A stretch of 14,838 bases of DNA from a virus (IMGVR_UViG_3300038360_000413); one strand, 5' to 3'; shown: positions 1,021 through 14,838, numbered from the stretch's first letter. Notes: generated by a model not told the origin, from the letters alone. A program made the numbers and translations.

Positions 1021-1050
1021 AAAAAGCCTGGTTAATCACCGGGCTTTTTT
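1021..1050. terminator. Bidirectional intrinsic terminator
   Basis: AAAAA-GCCTGGT-taatc-ACCGGGC-TTTTTT: 7-bp stem with one G:U, A-tract on the left and T-tract on the right, at the convergence of the + strand GT gene and the minus-strand operon. Confidence 0.8.
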
Positions 1051-1745
1051 AATATATGGCCATCTAAGGCCAGAGAAAGAAAAGGATTTAAACTATAAAT
1101 ATTTACATTAAAATGCTTTATTAACTGTGTTTTAATTTCTGAGGTTAGTTGTAGATTTCCCTTCATCCAGTCCAAGTAATCTTCTCTATAATCACCCTCA
1201 TTAGCCTGTCTTCAATATGTTTTACTATGCACTTCACCGTCCAAAGACCCTCCATCATGTCCTACTAAAATAATGTTAGCAGCCCCTAAGTGTGCGGCCA
1301 AGTGTAAAGCACTGTTAGTAGTGCACTTATTTATTAATAAATGCTTAGGATCTTTTCATGGCAAGTTGTTAGGAAGTTCTCCTACTGAATTTTCTAAATG
1401 TTCGAAGTAAAATAATTGCTCAGAGTTATAATTAGGAAACTCTCTTTCGAAAAAAAATCATTCCCATTCTTTAAAAGATTTCAGCGCGTTTCGACCGCCA
1501 GCCCGTTCGGGTATAATTAAATTAACCGCGGAGTTAAAAACATCTTCTATAATATCTTCGTTATAATCTTGGAAAATAACATATTTACAAATATCTATAT
1601 CAAACACACTATAAGATCTATTTACACTAATTACCGTCTTATTACGAAAAAAGTCCTTGGAGATATAATCTACCGAAGGACCTGAACATAGTACATAAAT
1701 ATCTTCATCAAGGTGAAGATTATATAGTTTATTAATTAGTCTCAA
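1032..1745 (-). CDS. DUF115/Maf/MptE-like (sialyltransferase-like) protein, 237 aa, 3 in-frame TGA read as Trp
   Basis: N-terminal YVLCSGPS...ISVN. The frame continues through TGA at 1458-60, 1356-58 and 1212-14 into ALHLAAHLGAANIILVGHD and IYSLNPFLSLALDGH, ending at TAA 1032-34 inside the terminator. TTG start abuts the upstream TAA. Confidence 0.72.
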
Positions 1746-1934
1746 TTATTCTTCTGATTCGTCCGACTCATCTCTATATCAAACTGTAACAGTTGATACT
1801 CCAGATTTGCTTGTTTCAAACACATCCCGCAATATTACACAAGCTTCATTGTTTAGTATTTCTTCGTAGTCTGTGTTACCTTCCCAATCTATAATAAACT
1901 TTCTAACTTTTTGTACCCCAACTCCGAATCCCAT
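1746..1934 (-). CDS. Hypothetical protein, 62 aa, one in-frame TGA
   Basis: GAGGAG RBS then ATG at 1934: MGFGVGVQKVRKFIIDWEG...STVTV[TGA 1779-81]YRDESDESEE-TAA. The TAA directly abuts the next start codon. Confidence 0.65.
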
Positions 1935-2087
1935 TTAATTGCTCTCCTCACCTTCCGGATCGTAATCCAATTCACGCCATTCATCGGCAGCACTTTTTTC
2001 AAGTTCTTCTCCGACAGGTATTCTTTTAAGCTCACCAGTAAGTGTGTTTTCATACACAGTATACGTGCTATATTTTTCCATAGTCAT
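1935..2087 (-). CDS. Small acidic hypothetical protein, 50 aa
   Basis: ATG overlaps the portal stop (TAATG): MTMEKYSTYTVYENTLTGELKRIPVGEELEKSAADEWRELDYDPEGEESN-TAA. Fills the gap exactly. Confidence 0.7.
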   Translation of the reverse strand: MTMEKYSTYTVYENTLTGELKRIPVGEELEKSAADEWRELDYDPEGEESN

Positions 2088-3967
2088 TATGCGCTACCTC
2101 TTGTTTGTGCCTTACTCTTATCTGAGCTAGGAGTATTTGGTTTGTCTTTTTGCCTAGTACCAGGCTGTTGCTCATTTGGAGCACTTTTAGACTTCATAGG
2201 AGGTGCGGCAGGTGCCTCACTTTCCATCATAAGTTGATATTGATTTATACGCTCCATTACCATTACAGCTATTGTAGGTGTCTTAGTTTTTAAAGACATT
2301 AAAGTCTGTTGTTGCATAGCTGGCTCTAAGGCCATTATTTGTATAGCATATTGATCTATAATAGAAAACGCATCTTCAGGTATGCCTCCAAATTCTTGTT
2401 CTAATTCTTTCTGGAATAACTCCATCTTCATTTTTAACATTTCATCTTGCATCGCTTTTTCGGAGCGTGCTTGATATTTGGCTAAAATTACTTGAGCTTT
2501 TCCACTTGATTCTGCGTCCATTTCTTTTTGCAGACCCTGCATTTCAAATGTACTTACCAAATGTTTTTTAGTAAGCTTCATTTCATCAGCATAGTGATAG
2601 CCCCATTCTTCTAGTAAGGTTGGAGTGGAGAGCTGAGAAGCGCCATTCATTTCAAGCATAAGCTGTTTTTCTTGCACATCATCGCTCATTTTAAACTTTT
2701 TAAATTTAAGTTTAATTGGCGGCAATTTAATTAGTCGAGAAGCATTAGGCAATAAGAAGTGATTTACAAAGTCTTCTAACAATTCTCTATATGTAAGAAA
2801 GTGATTCTCAATAATTCTAAGAGAGATAGATGATCCAGTCCAGGATGCTCCACCTTTAATAAATTCAATTGGTACTCCTAAACTATTAATAATGTTTTCT
2901 TCTAAAAACTTCATTTCAGGAGTAAGTAACAATGCACGAGCGTTTCCACCTAATTCTTGGTAACCAATTGGGATAGGAAATACGCCAATATGGTTCACAT
3001 CTTCTCGCCATTTTTTAATCTGCTCTTCCATCTCAGTACGCCATTGAGCAAGGTTTAATTGTGAATATGGGTCGAGTGTAACTGTGTTAGCGGGATAAAT
3101 ACTCTTCTTAGGCACAATATGCTCCATAGCAATTGCTTCGTTGCCTCTACGCAATGTTTGTAGATAAAAGATATCTTTTAACGCTGGAAGTATTATAGGC
3201 TTACCCCAACCCATATCTTCTTCAGCAAGAGTAGGACGTTTAAAATGGTATAAATTACTTTCGTCAAGTTCTATTCTTTTCTTAGTTTTTAAAGCTTCTA
3301 AAAACACCAAGGGAATGTCTCTTAAAATAGCTGCATTTCCTGATATTATTTGTTTTTTAATTTTATTAGGAATATTATAATAGTATAAGCTACTACCCGT
3401 TATTGGGTTATATTCTATGTCAATATTTTGTGGTGACCATCTTAAAAGTCTAAAATGTTTTCTGGATACTAAAGCTTCTTCGTGTACTGTAAACTTCATT
3501 TCTGAAGCTTTACATTCTTTACATGATCCATAGAATTCGAAGTTTTTTAATTTAAAACTTATGTTTTTAATATCATCTTCGTGTCCACACTTAGTACATT
3601 TTAAAAAACGTTTTTGTTTTACAAAGTAGGAAATAAAGGAATTTCCATAAGTAAAATAATCTAAGCCGATTTCTATTAAAAAGCTTTTTATTTTTAATTG
3701 TTCGTGTAGAAGTTCGTCCCATTTCTCTCTAATTTTTTCATCTACATCTGTTTTATAAAGTAAATCTGTTATTGGATATTCTGTTAGTTTAGTAATTACA
3801 TTACGCAAAAAGGCATTAGTATAGAAGAAGCCTTTACAGTACTTAAACAATACTTTTATGTCTTTAGGAATATACGAACTCGCCAAATCGAAAAATGGAT
3901 TAGGATATTCTCTACCATTTCTTGACGGGTTTTGTATATTTCTTTCAGTAAAACTTCTGTTACTCAT
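2087..3967 (-). CDS. Probable phage portal protein with Zn-ribbon insertion, 626 aa
   Basis: N-terminal YPNPFFDLASSYIP...NVITKLTEYPIT, central YHFKRPTLA...WGKP, and INSLGVPIEFIKGG resemble portals of large tailed phages as I recall them. CTKC...CKEC insertion; low-complexity C-terminal tail. Family call is from pattern recall, not a search. Confidence 0.7.
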   Translation of the reverse strand: MSNRSFTERNIQNPSRNGREYPNPFFDLASSYIPKDIKVLFKYCKGFFYTNAFLRNVITKLTEYPITDLLYKTDVDEKIREKWDELLHEQLKIKSFLIEIGLDYFTYGNSFISYFVKQKRFLKCTKCGHEDDIKNISFKLKNFEFYGSCKECKASEMKFTVHEEALVSRKHFRLLRWSPQNIDIEYNPITGSSLYYYNIPNKIKKQIISGNAAILRDIPLVFLEALKTKKRIELDESNLYHFKRPTLAEEDMGWGKPIILPALKDIFYLQTLRRGNEAIAMEHIVPKKSIYPANTVTLDPYSQLNLAQWRTEMEEQIKKWREDVNHIGVFPIPIGYQELGGNARALLLTPEMKFLEENIINSLGVPIEFIKGGASWTGSSISLRIIENHFLTYRELLEDFVNHFLLPNASRLIKLPPIKLKFKKFKMSDDVQEKQLMLEMNGASQLSTPTLLEEWGYHYADEMKLTKKHLVSTFEMQGLQKEMDAESSGKAQVILAKYQARSEKAMQDEMLKMKMELFQKELEQEFGGIPEDAFSIIDQYAIQIMALEPAMQQQTLMSLKTKTPTIAVMVMERINQYQLMMESEAPAAPPMKSKSAPNEQQPGTRQKDKPNTPSSDKSKAQTRGSA

Positions 3968-3971
3968 TTTA

Positions 3972-4457
3972 TTACCTTACTTGTTTTAAATATTCTTTTA
4001 TTTTTAAATACCGCACAGCCTGTATACCTCGTCTAGTCTCGTCTAACGGAAATGGGCCATGTACTGCTAACGCTTTCGTAGCTGCAAAATTTGGATTATC
4101 AAGTCCTGACAATGGTGGATAAAAATTATATCCTTCATCGTCAAATATGTATTTAATATACACTTTAACTTCCCAAGATAGTTTAAACTTGGGTTTTAAT
4201 TTGTTTAGCATAATCAGCGCTTTCCATATCCATTCCGGTTCAGGAACATTGGACATAAAGATATCCGCTGACATATCGTTAAGTAGAAAGACCACATTTT
4301 TAAATATATCCATATCTTCTAAAACCATGTCGTTGCGCCTAATAGCTGTCATTGCTAAAATCTGCTCCCGTTTTAAAGGAGTCAACGCTGGTTCAACGAA
4401 GTCAAGAGTCTCTGGTTCCAGAGGTTCTGTTATTTTTAAAAGATCTTCTACTAACAT
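3972..4457 (-). CDS. Hypothetical protein, 161 aa
   Basis: ORF track; GGTGGA RBS-like motif upstream; packed tightly against the portal start; TAA stop. Confidence 0.75.
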   Translation of the reverse strand: MLVEDLLKITEPLEPETLDFVEPALTPLKREQILAMTAIRRNDMVLEDMDIFKNVVFLLNDMSADIFMSNVPEPEWIWKALIMLNKLKPKFKLSWEVKVYIKYIFDDEGYNFYPPLSGLDNPNFAATKALAVHGPFPLDETRRGIQAVRYLKIKEYLKQVR

Positions 4458-4474
4458 TTTTCCACCATCAGCTT

Positions 4475-5023
4475 CTAGTGTTTATTTATTTTTTCGTAAG
4501 GGCCCCCAAGGATCTCCTCTCCAAGTCTTCTTCCAACACCCATTCCAAGTAATGCGGCTAAAGCAACACCTACTATTTTTTTAGTATTGCTTTTTCCCTT
4601 AAATAAATTAGGGTTTAATTTATTAACTACCAATGGGCCGGCAGGTAAACCTAAAGCGCCTCCTATTGCATTACCTCAATCTCCAGCCACAGGATTCCTT
4701 CTTTTCAACTCATGGGCTGCCCTTTCGGCTAGTTTCTCGAATACATATTCTGCTTTGTCCATACTTGCTTCTTTTTTCAGCTCCATACGTTTAAATTTGA
4801 CCACTGCATTTTTATCTCCGTAAACTACTTTATAGTAGGTACGTGACGCAGGTTTGCGCTTAAAAAAGCCAGATTTAGGAGTATCTATTCGCATAAAACG
4901 AGCACCAGGTTTGCCAAGCAAGGTAGCTCGTGCCTTACTTTTGTTTTTAGCGGCACTAATATTGAAAGTACCTACATGATGTGCTGCTCCAAATTCATAC
5001 AGTTGCAATTGTTTCTTATCCAT
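4475..5023 (-). CDS. Hypothetical virion-type protein with glycine-zipper segments, 182 aa, one in-frame TGA
   Basis: GAGGAG RBS, MDKKQ start at 5023. Continues through TGA 4676-78 (PVAGD[W]GNAIGGALGLPAG...KKIVGVALAALLGMGVGRRLG) to TAG 4475-77, filling an otherwise empty 200-bp gap. Confidence 0.75.
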
Positions 5024-5025
5024 TC

Positions 5026-6006
5026 TTAATTCTCCTCTAACTGAGCCTCTAAATAACAACCACGAGCTACTGCTGTAAGTGGTTCGTCCACGATTTTAAT
5101 TTCGCTTATTTCTAAAGGAAATTGTTTTGCCTGAAATTGATCTCTAAATACTTCTATAAAACCATTTATTGAAGCCGTGCCGCCGCCAATTATAATTGGT
5201 ATTGGTTTCGGAAAAGTAGGCATATTTGACGATTCAAATTGTTTTGCTAAATTAGCTAACAAATATCTAAATAATACTTCATAATATGTTTTTATAGCTT
5301 GTTGTTCTCTTGTACGCTCCTGCGTTGAGGCAGGATCTATTGTGTAATTTCCTGTTTCTTTTATATATTGAGCTTTCGCTTTAGTAATTCCACAATCTCT
5401 TGCCACGTTCTCATCAATCCAATCGCCTGATTTAGCTATGCTAAAAGTCAAAGCAGACATTCCAGCATATAAAATGGCAAAATTGACCATTCCTGCTCCC
5501 AATGAAATAGCAATTCCAGATAACTCTGAATTTTGTAAACCTACTAATCCTAAAGCTGTTGCTTCATTAATGGCTCTTGCAGAGTATCCTAAAGATTCTA
5601 TAATTTGCTTTAATACATCTTTATGATAGTCAATTTCTTGTGATTTATCAATAGGTTTTCCTGGGATACAATAAACAATGCGCTCGTTTTCTTGAGAAGC
5701 CGTTCCAACCAATCCGGAAATAATTTCTCGTAATATAGGGAAAGCATCTTGCTCAGTTGGATTTAATAATCCCTGTGCCATAGGTCGTTTTAGATCTTTA
5801 TTTCCAAAAACTTGTGCATACTCATAGGCTTTTTGTCCTATAATATGTAGTTTGTTATTAATTTCTATATAAGGCACATTAAGTGTTTTAAGTTGTCGAA
5901 GCGTTGTTACAGCTTTATCTATAGTTAAAAAAGCATTTCGTTGTAATGTAATATCTTGATTATTCACCGAAACAAAAAATCCAGTTCCACAGTCAATTGC
6001 TTTCAT
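5026..6006 (-). CDS. Actin-like ATPase (actin/MreB/FtsA/ParM/MamK superfamily), 326 aa
   Basis: Phosphate-1 AIDCGTGFF, connect-1 INEATA, phosphate-2 variant ISLGAGMVN, adenosine motif IIIGGGTA, connect-2 EPLTAVARG. Start placed at ATG 6006 (AAGGA upstream) instead of 6075. Confidence 0.85.
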   Translation of the reverse strand: MKAIDCGTGFFVSVNNQDITLQRNAFLTIDKAVTTLRQLKTLNVPYIEINNKLHIIGQKAYEYAQVFGNKDLKRPMAQGLLNPTEQDAFPILREIISGLVGTASQENERIVYCIPGKPIDKSQEIDYHKDVLKQIIESLGYSARAINEATALGLVGLQNSELSGIAISLGAGMVNFAILYAGMSALTFSIAKSGDWIDENVARDCGITKAKAQYIKETGNYTIDPASTQERTREQQAIKTYYEVLFRYLLANLAKQFESSNMPTFPKPIPIIIGGGTASINGFIEVFRDQFQAKQFPLEISEIKIVDEPLTAVARGCYLEAQLEEN

Positions 6007-6007
6007 T

Positions 6008-6088
6008 TTATAATGTCCATCCTTTATGTTGTTGATAATTTTTATTTTGTTTATTAGAAATTTTATAAATTCCACTTATTACTTTCAT
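6008..6088 (-). pseudogene. Collapsed GIY-YIG homing endonuclease remnant, 26 aa
   Basis: ATG overlaps the upstream stop (TAATG): MKVISGIYKISNKQNKNYQQHKGWTL-TAA. Looks like a GIY-YIG N-terminus joined to an HKGW-type C-terminal tail, with no YIG or catalytic core. Confidence 0.55.
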
Positions 6089-6327
6089 TAGAGATTTGAT
6101 TCTCCCACTTCGTAATCAAATGATATATTTTTGGAGCTAGAATTTTCAACAGGTATTTCATTCATTTGTTTTTTATTTGATTTGTTTGGTTCGCCAAGAG
6201 ATGTTGGAATGTTATTGTTTACAGTTATTGGACGTGAAAAATCCTTTTTCCAAAAGATATATAAAAAGACTATCTTACTAACTACAAACGTTGCAACATA
6301 TACAACTACTAACGTTTCCCAAAACAT
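6088..6327 (-). CDS. Small single-pass membrane protein, 79 aa
   Basis: N-terminal hydrophobic stretch LVVVYVATFVVSKIVFLYIFW followed by KK; TAATG coupling at both ends. Confidence 0.7.
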   Translation of the reverse strand: MFWETLVVVYVATFVVSKIVFLYIFWKKDFSRPITVNNNIPTSLGEPNKSNKKQMNEIPVENSSSKNISFDYEVGESNL

Positions 6328-7382
6328 TATACTAAATCCAATACTCCTCTACGGAATGGAGTTGGTAAGGATTCTAAAACATCTAAGCCGCTTTCGCCTT
6401 TTAGAGCTCCAATATGTCCCTCGCCAATTACACCTGTTAAGGATGCCGAAGGTATTGCAGATAGTTGGTCTTGTGTAACAGATACTCCGTCAATTGTTCT
6501 GCTGGCAACTTTTTCTTCTAAGAAAGTAGACAAGAAGGGATCTTCGAGACCTTTGCCATAAGATCCTAATAGATTGGCTTTTTCATCTACCTTTGATAAA
6601 ACCATTGCAGTTTTTTGAGGACCCAATTCGTCGGCTTTTTTAATTATTTCGTCATACGCAGTTTTTAATTCTTCGTCATTATCTTTTAAATAACCTTTTC
6701 TAATTTGAATATGATCGTAAAAATCAGGATTAAATTTAGTTTTTTGTAATGAACTATATTTTTCTAAAGCAGTTTTACCTAATGAAATATCTTTCTCTTT
6801 CGCAGCATCAATTACATTAACAATAAATTCAGCTTTCTTTTCCATTGGCATTCTGTAATGATTCTTTTCAAAGTAGGCTGCTGCTTGTTTTACATGCATA
6901 TCAGTTTCCAATGGAAACTTCTCATCTGTAGCCCATGCAAATTTGGAAATTGAAGCTCGTTTTTGCATAACAGGAGTAACCTTTCTGGTATCTACTATGT
7001 TATTAACAAACTGAGTTGAGCTGAGTTTAACTAACTCTTTTGGAACTTCTAATTTAAAGTTGTATGCTGCACTGGTTAAATTTGCAGCTGCTGTCTTAGT
7101 TACTTCCTCCGGAAGTTCATCAACTTTAGATGCTAATAAGGCCATGTTAAGTTCAACTAATTCTGGTGTGTATAATGCGAATTTACGCATTTGTCCTGAA
7201 CGTGGATTCCAAAGAATTAATGCAAAGTCTTTTTCATTGCGCTCTAATTCATCTTCGTAGGAAGGAATTGTAGCCATTCTACTTTTTTCAGATAAGGTAC
7301 TAGCAACTTCTGCTACCTTTTCTAATTCATTATTCACAATGTAATCAACCACGTCCAATGATTGTAGTGTTATAGTATTCAC
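6327..7382 (-). CDS. Hypothetical (probably virion/head-associated) protein, 351 aa
   Basis: AGGAG RBS and GTG start; long clean ORF. Internal near-duplicate RKFALYTPELV / EKFPLETDMHV; several K-x-A motifs. Confidence 0.75.
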   Translation of the reverse strand: MNTITLQSLDVVDYIVNNELEKVAEVASTLSEKSRMATIPSYEDELERNEKDFALILWNPRSGQMRKFALYTPELVELNMALLASKVDELPEEVTKTAAANLTSAAYNFKLEVPKELVKLSSTQFVNNIVDTRKVTPVMQKRASISKFAWATDEKFPLETDMHVKQAAAYFEKNHYRMPMEKKAEFIVNVIDAAKEKDISLGKTALEKYSSLQKTKFNPDFYDHIQIRKGYLKDNDEELKTAYDEIIKKADELGPQKTAMVLSKVDEKANLLGSYGKGLEDPFLSTFLEEKVASRTIDGVSVTQDQLSAIPSASLTGVIGEGHIGALKGESGLDVLESLPTPFRRGVLDLV

Positions 7383-7386
7383 GAGG

Positions 7387-7950
7387 CTATCTCCTATACT
7401 TAATTATAAAATTTTCTAATGCTGTTCCTGGGCAATTTTGTTTCCCAAATGAGGAGTGTCCGTAAATAGAAACACACTCCAAGTTTAATTTAGCACTATT
7501 TACTAAATGATTCAAGAGGTTTTCTAAAGCACGCAATTGTTTTTTAGCAGGTTTCTTGGCAGTACCAGTGTGGTTTGGTCCATTAAAATCACCAACTACC
7601 ATAATTCCAATAGAGGCTGTGTTCTGAGTTTTACAATGCCAAGTCACATCGCTAAGCATATTAGCCTGCCATACTTCGCCTTTTTTTGTAATACCATAGT
7701 GATAAGCAAACTTAGGAGCCCCGTTAGGAGAAAGATGATTGTTTGAGCCAGGAGTTATGTGGTAGTTGTTGACAGCCTCTATACTGCCATCACCCAATTC
7801 TTGATGAATAATAATTTTATTTATTTTAGATAAAGAACGCTTAGATCAGGTGCGAGTCGGATGAGCTGGTAACTCATTTATTTTGTTTATAATTTTAAAA
7901 GGAGAACCATGCTCTCCAAATGGATTAAATCTTCTAATTGTGTCAAACAT
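7387..7950 (-). CDS. N-acetylmuramoyl-L-alanine amidase (Amidase_2/PGRP-like) endolysin, 187 aa, TGA at codon 35
   Basis: Zn-amidase motifs IIIHQ, FAYHYGI, WHC..QNTASIGI, YGHS, NCPG. The first Zn-ligand His (IIIHQ) lies upstream of the track ORF start. The frame reaches ATG 7950 only through TGA 7846-48 (ELPAHPTRT[W]SKRSLSKINKIIIHQ). Confidence 0.88.
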
Positions 7951-7966
7951 TTGTTTTGTTGGTTTT

Positions 7967-8065
7967 TGGCAGGCATGGAAGGTACCGCCCCCTCATAGCG
8001 ATGAGTTGGAATCACCGCATCAGGATTTGAAGTCCTGTGCCATAGCTTCATGGCTATACACGCCT
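7967..8065 (-). tRNA. Non-canonical tRNA, anticodon UCA (opal decoder, probably Trp), 99 nt, CCA encoded
   Basis: Acceptor AGGCGTG/CATGCCT, then G73 and CCA. D-arm GCCATG-AAGC-TATGGC. Anticodon arm CAGGA-CTTCAAA-TCCTG (TCA at 8030-8028). 26-nt variable region with stem GCGGTGA/TCATCGC. T-arm GAGGG-GGCGGTA-CCTTC. All arms pair, and it occupies an otherwise empty intergenic gap. Confidence 0.85.
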
Positions 8066-8072
8066 ATTAATT

Positions 8073-8420
8073 TTAAATTCTTTTTGAGTGTTCGGCTATA
8101 CCTAATTTTCCAACATGCTTTCTACACCATTGCCAACATATGTCAATTAATGTGCGATGATGAGAGTTGCCGTACACGTCTTGACCTACATCACATACTA
8201 AGACTTTTGAATGTAGTTCTTTTGGAACGCGAGATCGGTATCTCTCTTCCATTATGATTATATGATCCGCCCAATTTCCTAACATAATAATTGTTTCTTT
8301 TGAATTACTATTAAGGCCTAGTGGTATTACGTCAACTGGCTCAAAATGTAATTTTAGCACATCTGCCAAAGCTACGCTGCGCACAAGTCCATGTTTACAA
8401 CAAGTAATTATTTTAGTCAT
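8073..8420 (-). CDS. Low-molecular-weight phosphatase-like protein (CX5R), 115 aa
   Basis: N-terminal P-loop C-KHGLV-R-S after a beta strand (IITC), WADHIIIME, and a C-terminal DVY resembling the LMW-PTP DPY acid loop. Confidence 0.7.
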   Translation of the reverse strand: MTKIITCCKHGLVRSVALADVLKLHFEPVDVIPLGLNSNSKETIIMLGNWADHIIIMEERYRSRVPKELHSKVLVCDVGQDVYGNSHHRTLIDICWQWCRKHVGKLGIAEHSKRI

Positions 8421-8429
8421 AAAAATATT

Positions 8430-8651
8430 TTATTTTATCTTACAACTTACTGATATAGGTTTATCGGTAAATAAACCATGTTTCTTCGCAAGTTTTAAAA
8501 GATGAGACTCAATAACAACTTTACCAATTTCTCTACTTGGAACAGGATTATCTAAAATATATGTAGTTTTATCAATATGATTATCGATTTGTATTGAAAA
8601 ATTATTTGATCCTGCAATTGGATCTACGTGTCCTTCAAAGAATTTATCCAT
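8430..8651 (-). CDS. Hypothetical protein, 73 aa
   Basis: ORF track; TAATG overlap with the holin stop; TAA end. Confidence 0.7.
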   Translation of the reverse strand: MDKFFEGHVDPIAGSNNFSIQIDNHIDKTTYILDNPVPSREIGKVVIESHLLKLAKKHGLFTDKPISVSCKIK

Positions 8652-9082
8652 TATTTACTAACTTTGGTTACTTTTTCATATGTACGTAATGTAGACATAC
8701 CAAGTAAAGCTAATACTAATTGAAACAAGCCATCCGCACTTATCGGAAAAGCTGCAACAGCTCCTGTTGCTAAACTAATCTTAGCCCAAAGATATGCTCC
8801 TACAATGTATTGAGGAATGAAATAAAAAGCCAAAGACGCTGCGCAAACCCAGCCGATTGCTGGACGCCAGCCTGCAACAAACCTGCTTTTATGTTGTGCT
8901 TCTAGCTTATTAATTTCTACTTGAAGTTCTGCAGGACGCTGCTTTAGTTTCTCTAAAACAGCGGCTCCTGCTAATTTTTCTTCTTTACTGGTAAGAACTT
9001 TATCTAAAACGTTTCCTATAGCATCTATAGGTTTAGCTAAAGTATCTCCACCGGCGCCGAATAATGTTGCCCAAATACTCAT
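8651..9082 (-). CDS. Holin of the GTA-holin/3TM (DUF3154) type, 143 aa
   Basis: EINKLEAQHKSRFVAGWRPAIGWVC...LFQLVLALLGMSTLRTYEK matches the family pattern I know; C-terminal hydrophobic helices; same operon as the amidase. Confidence 0.85.
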   Translation of the reverse strand: MSIWATLFGAGGDTLAKPIDAIGNVLDKVLTSKEEKLAGAAVLEKLKQRPAELQVEINKLEAQHKSRFVAGWRPAIGWVCAASLAFYFIPQYIVGAYLWAKISLATGAVAAFPISADGLFQLVLALLGMSTLRTYEKVTKVSK

Positions 9083-9084
9083 TG

Positions 9085-9333
9085 TTATTTATCCGTATCG
9101 GCCGGTATTTTTACTGGGGGCGCTTCTGGTGTTTCCTCGATCTTTTTTTCATCTGCAATTAGTTGTACTAACAAGTCCCTTTGCCCAGTAGCTTGATTGT
9201 GCTGTCTAGAAAGAATATTATAAGTTTCTTGCAGCTGTGTGATTTGATTTTGAACGTTACCAGCGTCTGCTTCTATTTTTGCGATTGCGGCGTTTACGTT
9301 AGTTAGTTTATCTTCTAAATTTAGTTTATTCAT
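9085..9333 (-). CDS. Small coiled-coil protein, 82 aa
   Basis: Heptad-like LEDKLTNVNAAIAKIEADAGNVQNQITQLQETY; first gene after the AT-rich intergenic region. Confidence 0.75.
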   Translation of the reverse strand: MNKLNLEDKLTNVNAAIAKIEADAGNVQNQITQLQETYNILSRQHNQATGQRDLLVQLIADEKKIEETPEAPPVKIPADTDK

Positions 9334-9361
9334 AATTTTTTAATATTTTGATTTAGTTAAG

Positions 9362-9404
9362 TGTTTAAAGTAAGGTTTAAAATTAAATATACTAACTTTA
9401 AACA
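9362..9404. repeat. 10-bp perfect inverted repeat, 23-nt spacer
   Basis: TGTTTAAAGT (9362-9371) and ACTTTAAACA (9395-9404) flank the putative -10 element. Confidence 0.5.
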
Positions 9405-9414
9405 TGAAAAGCAA
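9386..9414 (-). promoter_or_regulatory. Putative sigma70-like promoter upstream of the holin-tRNA-endolysin block
   Basis: TTGCTT (9414-9409), 17 nt, TATATT (9391-9386) in the longest true intergenic gap of the minus-strand operon (9334-9414). AT-rich context weakens specificity. Confidence 0.45.
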
Positions 9415-10299
9415 TTAAGAATTTGTGTTAAAATTATATTTAATTGTAACTTGTACATCGCCAGGAACATTAGTAGGATTCATAGTTATACTAATAGCGT
9501 CACCTTTTACAAATTCAGCGGATGAAAAAGTAAAATCGTACGTAGTTTTTATAACACTCAAGGTTGCTGTTGCTTTATGTGTCGAATCGCCTCCATAAAC
9601 AGAGTTGATATAGACTTTTAAATCTGTTTTTCCTGCTGCCGCGCCACCTCATATTTGTATTTGGGTTATTTTTCCATCCCATGGAGCAATTAAGCGGTGT
9701 TGATATGCCTCCCCAGCAGCTTCTACATTAGAGCCACATAAAGGAATATATACAACAGTAGACACGGCCGTAGTAAAAGCATGATTAGTAAAGTGGTCTA
9801 TTAATCCCTTAAAAGATTGTATACTGCCTCCGGTAAGATCTTTTTTTAACTCAATATCACTACCTGATACATCAAAGGCGGCATCTAGGTTTGTAATTAA
9901 CCCACTATGTGTTTCCAGCGCACCAACTAAGTTTTGACTTGTTCTATAAAAATCAGCAGCCGTATATATTCCAGAGCCTGTGGCATCTGGCACTACAATG
10001 ACAGCGCGAACTAACGGATCTATGGGTTGCATACCGCTCGCGGTTAGAGCCTGTACAGTAGTCCCGCTAATAGTAGCTGTTACGTATGGATTTATAAGCT
10101 CTAAACCATCTCTAAGGTTATCAACCTTGGTTTGTATATCACTTATAAAACTATCAAGAGTTACAGTAGTATTTAATAATTGATCTCTGAACGGAAGTCC
10201 AGATAGATAGTTAATACCGCTAATAGTTCCACTAATAGTAGCATTAGCACTAACGGCTTGGAATGTGTTAAGTTTTGTTAAATCTAAATATGCTATCAT
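9415..10299 (-). CDS. Probable virion structural protein, 294 aa, one in-frame TGA
   Basis: Track ORF continues through TGA 9649-51 (IAPWDGKITQIQI[W]GGAAAG...FVKGDAISI...VQVTIKY) to TAA 9415-17, giving a complete beta-rich C-terminal domain. Confidence 0.8.
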
Positions 10300-10301
10300 G
10301 A

Positions 10302-13300
10302 TTAAGTTGGTATTTTTCTAATAATTAAATTTTCTCCAGAACCACCACTAGTTGAAGGGAATCAGATATTTGCACCATCTCACACAGCGTTTCTGATTCC
10401 AGCGTAAGCACTTCCTACGGGAATACTGCCCTCCTCTACCGCTGTTTCTGTATTAAATATGGTTAAACTAGCACTAGACGCTAATGTTAAATAGGCTTTT
10501 CTTCCGGCAAATATCCCGCCAGTTACCTGCGTAGATACAAGCAATGATTGCCATTGAAATGGAACATCTCCAGATTGCTTAAAACGCGCTAATGTAGGGT
10601 TAGCTGATTGTGATGCTCCATAAAAACATCAGACATCTATACCATCATAAAAAATCGGTTTTATTCCTCACGCAGGAAGAGAGGTATCTCAGGACGCTCC
10701 GTCAATATTATATTTTGCCATTTTACGAAGTCCATTTCAAGTACCTTGTTCCGCTGTTCAAATATAAGTACCATCATATAATATACGATCTGTTCACATT
10801 ACCCCATCAAATCCAGCAATAGTAGCAGAGGAATCTCCTGCTATGCTATATTTCTCAAGAGCATTAGTGTCTCAAGTAGCTGCACCATCATTACACGATC
10901 AAATATTACTACCATCACATATTAACATAGAAGCGGCAACTGCTAGCGTATGAATGTGTGTATGTGTTGACATGTCGTCCGGGTCTACGCTAAACAAATA
11001 GCTTTCTTCGGTTTCGTCATCGATAATAGCCGTATAAAGCAGAGAGCCGTCTGTAGTAATTGAGTATAGTGCTGGGTAATCTGTAGTGGAAGCTCCAGGA
11101 ACTGTAATATCTTGAGAAGTAACTGTTTTAGTATGTACATTTATTTTATACATACGAGGAACAGACGATAATCCCAGTACATCTGTATATCCTCCACAGA
11201 TAAATAAGTCTGTTTTAAGAAAAACCATAGATATAGCATCAAAGGTATAATTAGCTGGGATTGTAATAGTTATGTCCTCTATTCCAGCAAATGTGTTGTT
11301 TCCTAAATTAAAAGAATAGTTATGTTCAGGGATACTGGCAATTCTACCTGTTAAATGGCCACCTTTAAAGTATCCTCTTCCAGTTTTTGCACCCGCATCA
11401 AATTGAGTAATATCATTATATGTGGCTACTAAGCCACTAGTAGTATTTAGTACAACTCTAACGTCTCCGTCACTTAATCCAATCTCATTACTATCTAAGT
11501 TAAAATAGGTAGTTCCGTCAGTTGATCTAAGATTTCCAATAACTACAGAATCTGCTGTTAATTCCCTGCTTACACGAAAGTCATCAATGTAACTTGTAGC
11601 AGCACTATCGGAGTATAGCTCAATCGCAATAAATCTTGTAGAAGATCCTAAGCTTCCAACAGCGCTTGGATGAGACCCCATAATAAAAGAATTTTTGTGC
11701 CAAGTATTGCCTACATGATTTACATAAGATACGGTAGTGTAGGAACTTAAATAATGTTTATCTGTATCAAATTCATGAACTCTAACTCTAAGATTGTTCG
11801 AACCAATACCTATAAAATGATAAAAACTAATAAAATAATTTTCTTCAGAAGTAACTGGTATAAAATGATTCGGATGTGTAGTAGCTAGTGTCCAACTGCT
11901 AGCTACTTTTAAACTATTATCTCCTGAGTGTGAAACTCCAGAATCATATTGTGAGGCATTTAATTCGACATAAGAACTTGGAGGTGCTCCAGTATTATAA
12001 TCAAATGTACTTAGCCAACTATAAACCACTCCACCATCTAAACTTAGAGTAGTACCCGCTTGTTCGAAATCAGAATTGCTAATTATATTATCATTTCCAG
12101 GCAATCCGAGAACTCCTTGAGTACCTGTATTTCCTGCAGGTCCACATATACCAGTTATTCCTTGTGGACCACAAGGTCCTGTTATTCCAGTTATTCCTTG
12201 TGGGCCGCACGGTCCAGTAATTCCTGGAGGACCACATGGACCTAATATTCCAGTTATTCCTTGTGGGCCACATGGTCCAGTAACTCCTGGAGGACCGCAT
12301 GGACCTAATATTCCAGTTATTCCTTGTGGGCCGCATGAGCCTTGTATACCTTGAGGACCGCATGATCCCAGTATTCCAGTTAATCCTTGAGGACCACATG
12401 AACCTTGTATACCTTGAGGACCACATGATCCTAGTATTCCAGTTATTCCTTGAGGACCGCAAGAACCTTCAGGGCCTTGAGGACCACATGGACCAGTTAT
12501 TCCTGTATTTCCTGGGGCACCTTTTTCACCTGTATTACCTATTGGACCACAAACACCTGTAGCGCCGGCTAATCCTTTTGGACCGCACGAACCTGTAATA
12601 CCTTGAGGACCACATGGACCTAATATTCCGGTTACTCCTTGGGGACCACATGAACCTTGTATACCTTGAGGACCGCATGAACCAATTATTCCAGTTATTC
12701 CTTGCGGACCGCACGGTCCAGTAACTCCTGGAGGTCCACATGAGCCCAGTATTCCGGTTAATCCTTGTGGGCCACATGGTCCAGTAACTCCTGGAGGTCC
12801 ACATGAGCCTAATATTCCGGTTACTCCTTGGGGACCACATGAGCCTTGTGAACCTTGAGGACCGCATGAACCAATTATTCCAGTTATTCCTTGCGGGCCG
12901 CACGGTCCAGTAACTCCTGGAGGTCCACATGAGCCTAGTATTCCGGTTAATCCTTGTGGGCCGCATGGTCCAGTAACTCCTGGAGGACCGCATGATCCTA
13001 GTATTCCAGTTAATCCTTGTGGGCCGCATGAGCCTTGTATACCTTGAGGACCGCATGAACCAATTATTCCAGTTATTCCTTGTGGGCCGCATGGTCCAGT
13101 AACTCCTGGAGGTCCACATGAGCCCAGTATTCCGGTTAATCCTTGTGGGCCACAAGGTCCAGTAACTCCTGGAGGTCCACATGAGCCTAATATTCCGGTT
13201 AATCCTTGTGGGCCACATGAGCCTTGTATACCTTGAGGACCACAGGCACCTTTTATTCCTGTATTTCCTTGAATACCTTTTTCACCTGTATATCCTATTG

Positions 13301-14837
13301 GGCCACATAAACCGATTATTCCAGTTAATCCTTGAGGGCCACACGGTCCGGTAACTCCTGGAGGACCACATGGACCTAATATTCCAGTTATTCCTTGTGG
13401 GCCACATGGTCCAGTAACTCCTGGAGGACCGCATGGACCTAATATTCCAGTTATTCCTTGTGGGCCGCAAGAACCTTCAGGGCCTTGAGGACCACATGAA
13501 CCGAGTATTCCAGTTACTCCCTGAGGACCACATGAACCTTGTATACCTTGAGGACCGCATGATCCTAGTATTCCAGTTACTCCTTGAGGACCACATGAAC
13601 CGACTAAACCAGTTGATCCAGTTGGGCCTGTAGGACCTTGGGGACCTTGATCACCTTGTACACCTTTTGGACCGCCAGGTCTAATAGTTAAAGTTTCAGT
13701 AACATCTATTGGAGCATAAGCTACTAAAGTTCATGCATAAAAGTGACATATTTCAGAACTATCTGGTGTTATGTCCACATCGATGTCAGTTCAATTGGTA
13801 CCGCTTATACCTGTACTAAGTTCAACAGAACCCTTTCCAGTAACATCAGCTACAGGAGTTCCACTATCTAATGTATAAGTAAATTTAGCTCCAGCAACCA
13901 TATCATGAACTAAACTATGTGTATTGGTAATGGCATTATATAACATGAACATGACACTATGCCCAGTACTAGGGCCGACTGGTACAAGAGGATCATTATC
14001 TATTATATATTGTGCTGCAGTTTCTCCAGTGTTAACTCCATACATTACTCATAAAATTGGATCACCACCGTTATCTTGTACTAAAGAATATGAAAAACTA
14101 TGAGGTCCGATTGCTCCTGTTATTCCGGCAGGGCCTATCTCGCCGTCTGGACCTGTAGAGCCTTGATTACCTATGCTTCCCGTAAACCCTTGAGGCCCAC
14201 AAATACCTGTTATACCTTGAGGACCGCATGATCCTAATTCTCCGGTAAATCCTTGAGGACCACAAACACCTGTTATTCCCATTGGACCACATGATCCTAA
14301 CTCTCCAGTAAATCCTTGAGGACCACAAACACCGGTCAAGCCCATTGGACCGCATGATCCTTGTTCTCCGGTAAATCCATAAACACCTTTTTCACCTGTA
14401 TTACCTATTGGACCGCATGATCCTAACTCTCCGGTAAATCCTTGAGGACCACAAAGTCCTGTTATACCTTGAGGACCACATGATCCTAACTCTCCGGTAA
14501 ATCCTTGAGGACCACAAAGTCCTGTTATACCTTGAGGACCACATGATCCTAATTCTCCGGTAAATCCTTGAGGACCACAAACACCTGTTATTCCCATTGG
14601 ACCGCATGATCCTAACTCTCCGGTAAATCCTTGAGGACCGCAAAGTCCTGTTATACCTTGAGGACCGCATGATCCTAACTCTCCAGTAAATCCTTGAGGA
14701 CCGCAAAGTCCTGTTATACCTTGAGGACCACATGATCCTAACTCTCCAGTAAATCCTTGAGGACCGCAAAGTCCTGTTATACCTTGAGGACCGCATGATC
14801 CTAATTCTCCTGTAAATCCTTGAGGACCACATACACC
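10302..14837 (-). CDS. Giant collagen-containing tail-fibre/receptor-binding-like protein, >=1511 aa, 5'-partial, 13 in-frame TGA
   Basis: One frame with no TAA/TAG from 14837 to TAA 10302-04; track ORFs 14049..14597, 13791..14045 and 10899..12104 are all in this frame. Order: collagen 1, ~142-aa globular domain, collagen 2, CBM4/9-like domain (NSDFE...HSGDNSLKV...YIDDFRV), linker, beta-propeller with CDGSNIW, YDGTYIW, YDGIDVW, WDGANIW. Next gene starts 2 nt after the TAA. Confidence 0.85.
12096..13673 (-). repeat. Collagen domain 2: about 175 Gly-X-Y triplets built from 18/27-nt units ([18 protein letters not shown])
   Basis: Gly register is identical at both ends (mod 9) and there are no stops in frame; about 45 Cys by manual count. 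Confidence 0.92.
14100..14837 (-). repeat. Collagen domain 1 (partial): >=82 Gly-X-Y triplets, 63-nt tandem unit [21 protein letters not shown]
   Basis: Near-identical 63-nt copies are visible at about 14410-14838; about 20 Cys. Confidence 0.92.
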
Positions 14838-14838
14838 T

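Follow-up and report, generated by a model that had tools for sequence, protein, structure and literature searches.

Phages that translate TGA as tryptophan (Trp) have been described from animal and human guts, in the Jade, Agate and other clades (Borges et al., 10.1101/2021.08.26.457843). The same study (10.1101/2021.08.26.457843) describes a late-gene bias of TGA and code-change genes that adjoin the lysis cassette, and it reports for recoded gut phages a split use of TGA, as terminator and as Trp codon. In the marine jumbo-phage survey of Weinheimer and Aylward, Codetta gave the standard code for all 85 bins (PMC9123017), and the paper on the RNAP-encoding mReC Caudovirales mentions neither TGA nor the genetic code (PMC7481178).

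Here we follow up a sequence-only reading which proposed that TGA encodes Trp in a window of 14,838 nucleotides (the whole stretch of DNA that was analysed). The window belongs to the block of virion and lysis genes in a marine jumbo phage whose genome measures 210,263 bp, and the runs that contain the phage DNA are seawater metagenomes. TGA-to-Trp recoding is already established in phages; it is seen here in a marine lineage. Our results confirm the in-frame TGA codons, and their reading as Trp is well supported.

Genes and TGA codons of the window

All 20 TGA triplets named by the sequence-only reading are in frame on the minus strand and belong to six open reading frames (ORFs). As had been claimed, each of these ORFs stays open up to a TAA or TAG just ahead of the next gene, and no gene of the window ends in TGA. 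All close with TAA or TAG, including the plus-strand glycosyltransferase gene, whose stop is TAA. The features are as follows.

10302..14838, minus strand: collagen-like tail-fibre gene, 3' 1511 of 1803 codons, extending past the window; 13 TGA (10362, 10380, 10629, 10668, 10689, 10737, 10758, 10794, 10872, 10899, 13731, 13791, 14049) and 4 TGG; laid out as two G-X-Y runs, a middle domain, a weak CBM_4_9-like part and a C-terminal repeat domain with DGxxIW motifs
9415..10299, minus strand: 294-aa gene of unknown family; one TGA (9649, residue 217)
8073..9333, minus strand: four TGA-free genes ahead of the tRNA, with 0 TGA and 7 TGG in total, encoding an 82-aa coiled-coil protein, a holin (phrog_3427), a 73-aa protein and a 115-aa protein with a C-X5-R-S motif
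7967..8065, minus strand: candidate tRNA of 99 nt with anticodon UCA, between the holin-containing lysis genes and the amidase
7387..7950, minus strand: Amidase_2 endolysin (PGRP/T7-lysozyme type), 187 aa; TGA (7846) at codon 35
4475..5059, minus strand: gene of ~182-194 aa with a Gly/Ala-rich hydrophobic C-terminal part; one TGA (4676)
2087..7382, minus strand: TGA-free genes of the same block, which encode Trp by TGG only (the TGA-bearing gene at 4475-5059 falls inside this span): putative portal (2087-3967), 161-aa gene, actin-like Volactin-family gene (5026-6075), 79-aa membrane protein and 351-aa gene
1746..1934, minus strand: 62-aa gene; one TGA (1779, residue 52)
1032..1745, minus strand: MptE-like or sialyltransferase-like gene, 237 aa; three TGA (1458, 1356, 1212)

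Over 1512 codons the fibre frame contains a single TAA or TAG, which is its own stop, against 25 to 118 in the other five frames, and this excludes chance as the reason for the open frame. Assembly error can be ruled out as well, since independent seawater runs show no letter difference at the TGA sites that they cover. Run X5 spans the entire 7300-11300 stretch, run X10 covers sites 7846, 9649 and 10629-10899, and contigs from the RNA libraries X21 and X22 cover 9649 and 10758-10872, in each case with identical letters. Two more TGA triplets (8020 and 7993) would fall in the amidase frame only if it were opened from GTG 8061; both are inside the tRNA gene, and the amidase start is ATG 7950.

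The amino acid encoded by TGA

All four fibre motifs of the DGxx(I/V)W type noted by the sequence-only reading (DGSNIW, DGTYIW, DGIDVW and DGANIW) are closed by TGA. The reading had put the collagen Gly positions at about 257 and the Cys positions at about 65; we count 258 Gly, in two G-X-Y runs of 82 and 176 triplets, plus 65 Cys that all occupy Y positions, and none of either is encoded by TGA. All 13 fibre TGAs are outside the collagen runs. Ten of them are found in the last ~200 residues, all in the C-terminal domain, together with one TGG-coded Trp (residue 1429). The proposed loss of the first Zn ligand of the amidase under table 11 also holds, as the start would then be TTG 7797, past the Zn-ligand His. 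The TGA (7846) is upstream of this His, which aligns with the first His of the IHH motif in PGRP amidases.

Homologous positions at the TGA columns are enriched in Trp, both in the relatives of the window, where it appears as TGG, and in the terminase. Across 25 related loci the window columns hold TGA 63 times and TGG 29 times, the rest being E, S, F, K, N, Y, Q and V; two non-coding columns in the tRNA gene account for V (5) and for 5 of the TGA. Gly (GGN) and Cys are absent from the window columns among these loci. The amidase column is TGG in 14 related loci and TGA in 3, and that of the 62-aa gene (1779) is TGG in 4 and TGA in 1. In the MptE-like gene the column of residue 130 is W (TGG) or F in relatives and the other two TGA sites are variable, while residue 217 of the 294-aa gene is Tyr in five relatives. 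For the gene at 4475..5059 no homologue was found in the related loci. In the fibre gene the TGA columns of relatives hold TGA or TGG. Its C-terminal domain, with 10 of the 20 window sites, is matched in five relatives by TGA only, so these sites alone are uninformative on the amino acid.

The phage terminase offers a broader comparison. Against 150 distant homologue representatives, its 14 TGA columns hold W in 491 of ~1021 cells (48%), Y in 163 and F in 112 (27% for Y or F), so that W, Y and F together make up 75% of the cells. They resemble the TGG control columns, in which W fills 313 of ~574 cells. Among the five most frequent residues of a column, G and C each occur in only one of the 14 columns, with 3 cells each, and Ser is absent from the frequent residues listed for these columns. 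The Trp content of the genome points the same way. TGA and TGG together account for 1.60% of codons in 36 long TGA-bearing ORFs, compared with 1.26% for TGG alone in 60 TGA-free ORFs; Trp content is thus normal only if TGA is counted as Trp.

The comparison of tables 4 and 11 suggested by the sequence-only reading was made with greedy ORF coverage, a crude measure that is not a gene caller. Genome-wide coverage rises from 0.839 with table 11 to 0.923 with TGA as sense; treating TAG as sense gives 0.867 and the TAA-sense control 0.868, so the gain is specific to TGA. The reading of TGA as Trp is based on this gain, the interchange with TGG in relatives, the W-dominated terminase columns and the Trp content.

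A candidate tRNA for UGA

A tRNA with anticodon UCA is supported as the putative decoder. It is found within the region that the sequence-only reading had marked and is absent from the text of that reading. The anticodon loop is CUUCAAA and CCA is encoded. The acceptor end has A1-U72, G2-C71, G3-C70 and G73, and the acceptor and T stems are of the 7/5 type. A D stem of 6 bp closes a 4-nt loop without GG, the long variable arm of a class II body has a 7-bp stem, and the T-loop is GGCGGUA in place of UUCRA. The cloverleaf is predicted at -36.9 kcal/mol, and the Rfam tRNA model scores 30.5 bits over the D arm, the anticodon arm and the next arm. ARAGORN with default settings missed the tRNA at 7967-8065, and it labels the copies of the relatives as tRNA-SeC. 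The class II body, the D-loop without GG and the lack of a UUCRA T-loop are the reasons why we call the function of this tRNA putative.

In 8 related loci a homologue of the tRNA precedes the amidase. The consensus structure comprises 27 pairs, of which 11 show compensatory changes, and a conserved UCCAA in the variable loop. A covariance model matches only loci with 16-32 in-frame TGA per ~20 kb, or fewer in the case of two short loci, and finds 0 matches in nine standard-code loci. Relatives with the tRNA are recoded and relatives without it use the standard code, among them sister lineages whose portals are 50-60% identical. Group B, a recoded lineage, has the tRNA ahead of an amidase gene that is free of TGA. 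With respect to the bacterial Trp identity set of PMC9976931, the tRNA matches at G73, A1-U72, G2-C71, G3-C70, C35 and A36, and differs in having C4-G69, G5.U68 and U34 where the set has G4-C69, G5-C68 and C34.

TGA use across the genome

There are ~300 in-frame TGA sites genome-wide, concentrated at 19.6-26.8, 42-83, 180-192 and 199-210 kb. Recoded genes include those for the fibre, baseplate J, the terminase and the amidase. Replication and nucleotide-metabolism blocks avoid TGA, and the class II ribonucleotide reductase and the AEP primase are free of it, as are many small genes; in total 60 long ORFs have no TGA and 283 TGG. The block pattern is not a clean division into early and late genes: the portal, actin-like and holin genes have no TGA, and ligase-like and DnaJ-domain genes have it. 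We saw no bias in the base after TGA. Genes for a tryptophanyl-tRNA synthetase (TrpRS) or a release factor are absent from the phage genome, and a function against RF2 was not found either. The terminase, with 14 TGA, would need very efficient suppression against host RF2.

The sequence-only reading had named many TGA-ending genes elsewhere in the genome as evidence against itself. Such genes do exist in part, about ten of them in TGA-poor blocks, and they limit the reading without overturning it. Ten TGA-ending ORFs overlap the start of the next ORF as ATGA, some of them behind a Shine-Dalgarno motif. Among 39 ORFs with a single TGA, 9 have it within 8 codons of the end, compared with 2.5 expected (P = 6e-4). 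The TGA-ending genes with ATGA overlaps show that TGA use is split, with TGA as terminator in one set of genes and as Trp codon in another, and that the reassignment is not genome-wide.

Alternative explanations and proposed mechanism

One possibility is that the host itself uses code 4 and has no RF2, in which case the phage would match its host and tRNA(UCA) would only add supply. Up to 14 TGA per gene would indeed demand near-complete suppression from a phage in which neither a release factor nor an anti-RF2 function was found, and read-through at the TGA 'stops' of the other gene set would be harmless because TAA or TAG follows within 1-8 codons. However, 60 long ORFs with 283 TGG and no TGA at all would be unexpected if TGA were a free Trp codon in the host, the ten ATGA stop/start overlaps have TGA as terminator, and the sister lineages are standard-code without tRNA(UCA). 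The phage DNA comes from seawater metagenomes, and the known code 4 bacteria, Mollicutes and insect endosymbionts, are not seawater plankton. We therefore consider a code 4 host improbable. That the TGAs are real stops, in genes that are broken, mis-assembled or expressed as fragments, is practically negligible. Public protein sets do list table-11 fragments as separate proteins (P0024, P0145, P0152), but the frames stay open for hundreds of codons past each TGA, the TGA columns are kept in relatives, the letters are identical in independent runs, and stops at these sites would cut domains such as the amidase Zn site and the terminase.

TGA could also be read as an amino acid other than Trp, which seems very unlikely to us. 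Ser might be expected from the long variable arm and from G73, since SerRS reads variable-arm size and G73 (PMC9976931), and the tRNA-SeC label of the relatives' copies might hint at selenocysteine. Against any of these residues stand the 75% of W, Y or F in the terminase TGA columns and the interchange with TGG in relatives. Code 25, in which TGA is Gly as in phages of Gracilibacteria and Absconditabacteria, was rejected, with TGA at 0 of 258 collagen Gly and no GGN at the window TGA columns; for Cys the count is 0 of 65. Selenocysteine decoding was rejected on the tRNA fold, the homologue columns and the number of sites: the tRNA arrangement is 7/5 rather than the bacterial 8/5, the columns are W, Y or F, and ~300 sites are far too many for SECIS-dependent insertion.

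We consider it very likely that the virion/lysis block and three other blocks of the genome are read with UGA as Trp, that the phage-borne tRNA(UCA) between the holin-containing genes and the endolysin acts as decoder, and that a standard-code host thus meets two gene sets. The bacterial tRNA-Trp identity marks of the acceptor end suggest that the host TrpRS most likely charges the tRNA with Trp. The host is most likely standard-code, since the blocks without sense TGA hold about ten TGA-ending genes. The TGA=Trp set would be fully made only once the suppressor tRNA is present. The two sets may correspond to early and late genes, and the split would then time virion assembly and lysis.

A more tentative proposal, on balance doubtful, is that of a timed code switch. 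TGA would lock the genes for the fibre, the terminase and the baseplate, and in two of three lineages also that for the endolysin, until the long-armed tRNA-Trp(UCA) is made from its place within the lysis cassette, immediately before the TGA-bearing amidase gene. The other gene set would be readable by the standard-code host, with some of its genes ended by TGA. The odd tRNA body, which lacks the D-loop GG and the UUCRA T-loop and has the conserved UCCAA in its variable loop, would be an adaptation that, for example, out-competes RF2 or evades host tRNA-targeting defences. If true, it would explain why standard scans seem to miss the suppressor tRNA in most recoded phages.

Under table 11 the genes for the fibre, endolysin, terminase, baseplate and glycosyltransferase are broken into fragments, both in this phage and in its recoded relatives. 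This defeats annotation, fibre-based host-range inference and the mining of endolysins unless TGA is taken as Trp. TGA-to-Trp recoding, described from gut phages, is extended here to a lineage of jumbo phages from seawater. The results also give a concrete case of a suppressor tRNA that is missed by a default tRNA finder, which bears on the 'missing' suppressors of most recoded phages. Since the genome clearly has some genes that end in TGA and others that read it as Trp, the code-switch hypothesis could be tested in this lineage when a host becomes available.

Comparison with known systems

The marine phage shares many features with the gut phages that Borges et al. described. In-frame TGA, translated as Trp, is concentrated in structural and lysis genes, with the replication genes in standard code; a tRNA(UCA) is encoded, close relatives are standard-code, and the code-change genes are found by the lysis cassette. 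As in Jade, the genome is about 200 kb. It differs from these gut phages in being a seawater phage of a different lineage, and from two Jade genomes in having no RF1 or TrpRS. Its suppressor tRNA, with a long variable arm and a non-canonical T-loop, is missed by default ARAGORN, and at least ten of its genes are clearly TGA-terminated with ATGA overlaps. With the phages of PMC9123017 and PMC7481178 it shares a marine origin, a size near 200 kb and a known metagenomic lineage; unlike the bins of PMC9123017, a subgroup of such marine phages is recoded here.

The phage tRNA has G73, A1-U72, G2-C71, G3-C70, C35 and A36 in common with bacterial tRNA-Trp and the classical UGA suppressors derived from it, and its anticodon loop is one base off the CCA loop. 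Unlike tRNA-Trp, it is of class II, with a variable stem of 7 bp, a 6-bp D stem with a 4-nt loop lacking GG, the T-loop GGCGGUA and non-canonical pairs at 4-69 and 5-68. It also recalls the allo-tRNAs and the irregular long-armed phage tRNAs reportedly described by Mukai et al. in 2017. Like them it is long-armed with an anticodon that is not that of Leu, Ser or Tyr and that corresponds to a stop codon. It differs from them in an acceptor/T arrangement of 7/5 rather than 8/4 or 9/3, and its identity marks point to Trp rather than Ser.

Window genes and their in-frame TGA codons

The window corresponds to bases 69387-84224, on the reverse strand, of a single 210,263-bp IMG/VR virus record with a completeness of 99% (CheckV) and a GC content of 36%. 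DNA of this phage is found in seawater or marine metagenome runs from many studies. The minus strand carries every gene of the window except one, and in reading order its features are:

10302-14838 (-), collagen-like tail fibre, cut by the window end (1803 codons in the genome)
(-), 294-aa gene
(-), 82-aa coiled-coil gene
(-), holin (phrog_3427, E 1e-26)
(-), 73-aa gene
8073-8420 (-), 115-aa gene with a C-X5-R-S motif
7967-8065 (-), tRNA, between the 115-aa gene and the endolysin
(-), Amidase_2 endolysin
(-), 351-aa gene
(-), 79-aa membrane protein
5026-6075 (-), actin-like gene (Pfam Volactin, E 1.6e-65)
(-), gene of about 190 aa
(-), 161-aa gene
(-), putative portal
(-), two small genes
(-), MptE-like / sialyltransferase-like gene, last in reading order
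(+), glycosyltransferase, convergent with the minus-strand genes

All 20 TGA codons listed by the sequence-only reading are in frame, in six genes. Each of these frames stays open until a TAA or TAG that directly precedes the next gene; TGA terminates none of the window's genes. The fibre frame contains a single TAA/TAG, its own stop, in 1512 codons, against 25 to 118 in each of the five remaining frames, which rules out an open frame by chance. The collagen counts, from which it had been argued that TGA encodes neither Gly nor Cys, are accurate: TGA occurs at none of the 258 Gly positions and at none of the 65 Cys positions, which all occupy Y, and the 13 TGAs of the fibre are all found outside the collagen runs. 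All four DGxx(I/V)W motifs close with TGA. Under the standard code the amidase does lose its first Zn-ligand His, being called as a shorter TTG-started ORF that begins after it.

Assembly error does not explain the TGA letters. An independent DNA run agrees throughout window 7300-11300, sites 7846, 9649 and 10629-10899 are covered by a run from another year, and contigs of two RNA libraries span 9649 and 10758-10872. The runs were compared as contigs only, for their sequence.

Several genes of the window are of interest in their own right. The fibre collagen, 10302-14838(-), carries Cys at Y in 65 of 258 G-X-Y triplets, in repeats such as G-x-C-G-P-Q, and this unusually Cys-rich composition suggests dense disulfide cross-linking. 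For the fibre C-terminal domain, a word-indexed protein search returned fragments of the same genome only and no distant homologues, and no PDB match was found; the MptE-like protein likewise gave no useful PDB match. The actin-like gene, whose Volactin family takes its name from an archaeal actin homologue, lies between the portal and the 351-aa gene and is kept in 20 of 25 related loci. The 115-aa protein, encoded directly upstream of the suppressor tRNA, has no match in Pfam or PHROG; its C-X5-R-S motif is the signature of low-molecular-weight phosphatases.

The amino acid encoded by TGA

The recoding is real and its interpretation as tryptophan is correct. From the surroundings of portal-gene homologues (portal identity 49-70%) we retrieved 25 related loci, and at the columns of the window TGAs they show TGA 63 times and TGG 29 times, with neither Gly nor Cys; the remaining residues are E, S, F, K, N, Y, Q and V. 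Residues 14 and 23 of a frame opened at GTG 8061, also tabulated, fall in the tRNA gene; these two columns are non-coding and supply all 5 V and 5 of the TGA counts. At the amidase site, where the PDB alignment is uninformative, 14 loci have TGG and three have TGA. Some relative has TGG at 6 of the 20 window sites, while 10, all in the fibre C-terminal domain, show TGA only, in five relatives; three have other residues and one is without a homologue.

The expected enrichment for tryptophan is also seen in the terminase large subunit of this genome, which contains 14 TGA and 9 TGG codons and was compared with 150 representatives from an exhaustive HMMER search. Its TGA columns hold W in 491, Y in 163 and F in 112 of about 1021 cells, and in four well-populated ones W accounts for 85-107 of about 141-144. 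The TGG-coded control columns are similar (W 313 of about 574).

Codon usage agrees with this reading. TGA and TGG together account for 1.60% of codons in 36 long TGA-bearing ORFs, and TGG alone for 1.26% in 60 long TGA-free ORFs; without TGA the Trp content of the TGA-bearing set would be half of what is usual. The greedy ORF coverage computed for the genome, a crude measure for the comparison of codes proposed from the sequence, rises from 0.839 under table 11 to 0.923 with TGA as sense, compared with 0.867 for TAG as sense and 0.868 for the TAA-sense control. The base following TGA shows no bias relative to the first base of all codons (P = 0.41) and differs marginally from the base following TGG (P = 0.04).

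The terminase gene (genome stretch L013:9928-12603(+)) also contains a ~260-residue insert with a LAGLIDADG_3 domain (residues ~250-515), in which several Trp codons are TGA. Since most homologues are without it, the insert is probably an intein or homing endonuclease.

A tRNA(UCA) as the probable decoder

Default ARAGORN finds 26 tRNAs and a tmRNA at genome 104-131 kb, including tRNA-Trp(CCA) and tRNA(CUA), and no UCA anticodon in the window or the whole genome. A tRNA(UCA) was nevertheless verified at 7967-8065 by folding, Rfam, relatives and a covariance model. The 99-nt sequence folds as a cloverleaf (-36.9 kcal/mol) with the acceptor stem A1-U72, G2-C71, G3-C70, C4-G69, G5.U68, U6-A67, G7-C66, followed by G73 and an encoded CCA. 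The D stem (6 bp) closes the loop AAGC and the anticodon stem (5 bp) the loop CUUCAAA; the stem of the variable arm has 7 bp, and the T stem GAGGG/CCUUC carries the loop GGCGGUA. The match to the Rfam tRNA model scores 30.5 bits and extends over the D and anticodon arms and the arm after them.

In eight related loci a tRNA of 97-100 nt, labelled tRNA-SeC(tca) by ARAGORN, lies directly upstream of the amidase gene. These fall into two sequence types, both with GG in the D-loop and normal UUCRA-type T-loops. A blastn search with the window tRNA gave no match in the related loci because its homologues are too diverged in sequence, but the three types, with that of the window, fit one consensus of 27 pairs, 11 with compensatory changes, and UCCAA is conserved in the variable loop of each. 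The covariance model derived from the three matches only this window and those eight loci, and does not find the tRNA in nine long loci of standard-code relatives. Coverage follows the same division: with TGA as sense it exceeds standard-code coverage in the eight tRNA-bearing loci, six of which, of about 20 kb, have 16-32 in-frame TGA, and is about equal to it in the nine loci without the tRNA, where TGA is at noise level only. A 16-base pattern of the tRNA 3' end gave 96 stretches over IMG/VR, the real ones being only copies already known from group B, one of two groups of recoded relatives.

The acceptor marks of the tRNA match the bacterial Trp identity set (PMC9976931). Neither a PF00472 release factor nor a PF00579 TrpRS/TyrRS is found in the phage genome and, given the missing synthetase, we infer that the host TrpRS charges the tRNA. 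That TGA is read as tryptophan through this phage tRNA is, in our judgement, very likely.

Other decoders were considered and set aside. A tRNA-like gene at L009:10456-10527(-) (genome 130456-130527) combines an acceptor stem of 8 bp with G73 and an encoded CCA, and its 8-nt anticodon loop CUUCCAAA can be read as UCA or CCA plus one extra base; it was rejected for its degenerate D arm, its 8-nt T-loop and the lack of an Rfam match at the gathering score. In the tRNA-Trp(CCA) (L008:4297-4371(-), genome 109296-109371) the base of the anticodon stem has the mismatch A31.C39; as a route to UGA reading this became superfluous once the UCA tRNA was found. The tRNA(CUA) (L008:10365-10439(-), genome 115365-115439) is a well-formed amber suppressor with A73 and G1-C72 within the tRNA array. 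Despite its presence we rejected TAG recoding, for which there is no coverage gain above control and no convincing TAG-split gene; TAG ends 54 ORFs of the crude TGA-as-sense ORF set.

Two further RNAs were noted. At L008:6610-6677(-) and L008:5989-6463(-), a tRNA-like gene (Rfam tRNA 43 bits; A1-U72, G73, CCA) bears a tetraloop hairpin where the anticodon loop would be and adjoins sub-threshold YrlA (Y RNA-like) matches. The tmRNA (L007:14475-14855(-), genome 104475-104855; Rfam 88.8 bits) encodes the tag peptide GKTQFALAA.

TGA as a terminator elsewhere in the genome

Only part of the genome is reassigned: sense TGA clusters at 19.6-26.8, 42-83, 180-192 and 199-210 kb, and long ORFs at 84-150 kb have essentially none. 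Among the recoded genes are those of the fibre, baseplate J and terminase, two for GT1 glycosyltransferases, one ligase-like and one with a DnaJ domain. No TGA occurs in a class II ribonucleotide reductase, an AEP primase or a 1506-aa multi-glycosyltransferase (32 TGG), and three genes of the window, encoding the portal, the actin-like protein and the holin, are likewise free of it.

Of 39 ORFs with a single TGA in the TGA-poor blocks, 9 have it within 8 codons of their TAA/TAG end, where 2.5 are expected (P = 6e-4). The terminal TGA of ten table-11 ORFs shares bases, as ATGA, with the ATG that starts the next ORF (of at least 40 codons), in some cases preceded by AGGAG-like motifs. These are ordinary coupled stop/start junctions, and TGA is therefore a terminator for that gene set. 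Many genes ending in TGA elsewhere in the genome had been named beforehand as evidence against recoding; the ten overlaps go part of the way towards this, but they refine the tryptophan reading and do not overturn it. Judging from gene content, one of the two gene sets would be early and the other late. A stronger reading, a timed switch of the code together with an adapted tRNA body, is tentative and in our view somewhat doubtful.

Lineages and comparison with known recoded phages

The sampled recoded phages fall into three deep lineages, namely this phage and groups A and B. In the portal tree they are interleaved, with weak support, with standard-code relatives, and the recoding may have a single origin. 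Loci L024 and L026 and the group B loci L022, L023, L025, L029 and L031 were compared for the amidase and tRNA. The TGA at amidase codon 35 is common to this phage and group A, and the group B amidase has no TGA, though tRNA(UCA) sits directly upstream of it. A TGA-gated endolysin is for this reason not a fixed feature of the lineage.

The finding that TGA encodes tryptophan is useful for annotation. An analysis of 85 marine jumbo-phage bins with Codetta found the standard code only (PMC9123017), and a paper on RNAP-encoding Caudovirales does not discuss the genetic code (PMC7481178). The TGA-to-Trp recoded phages of Borges et al. (10.1101/2021.08.26.457843) were described with the same TGA split, and a code switch during infection was proposed for them. 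Every sequence-level criterion of those phages is found in ours, but it differs from them in its seawater habitat and lineage, in being without a phage RF1 and TrpRS, and in the irregular form of its suppressor tRNA.
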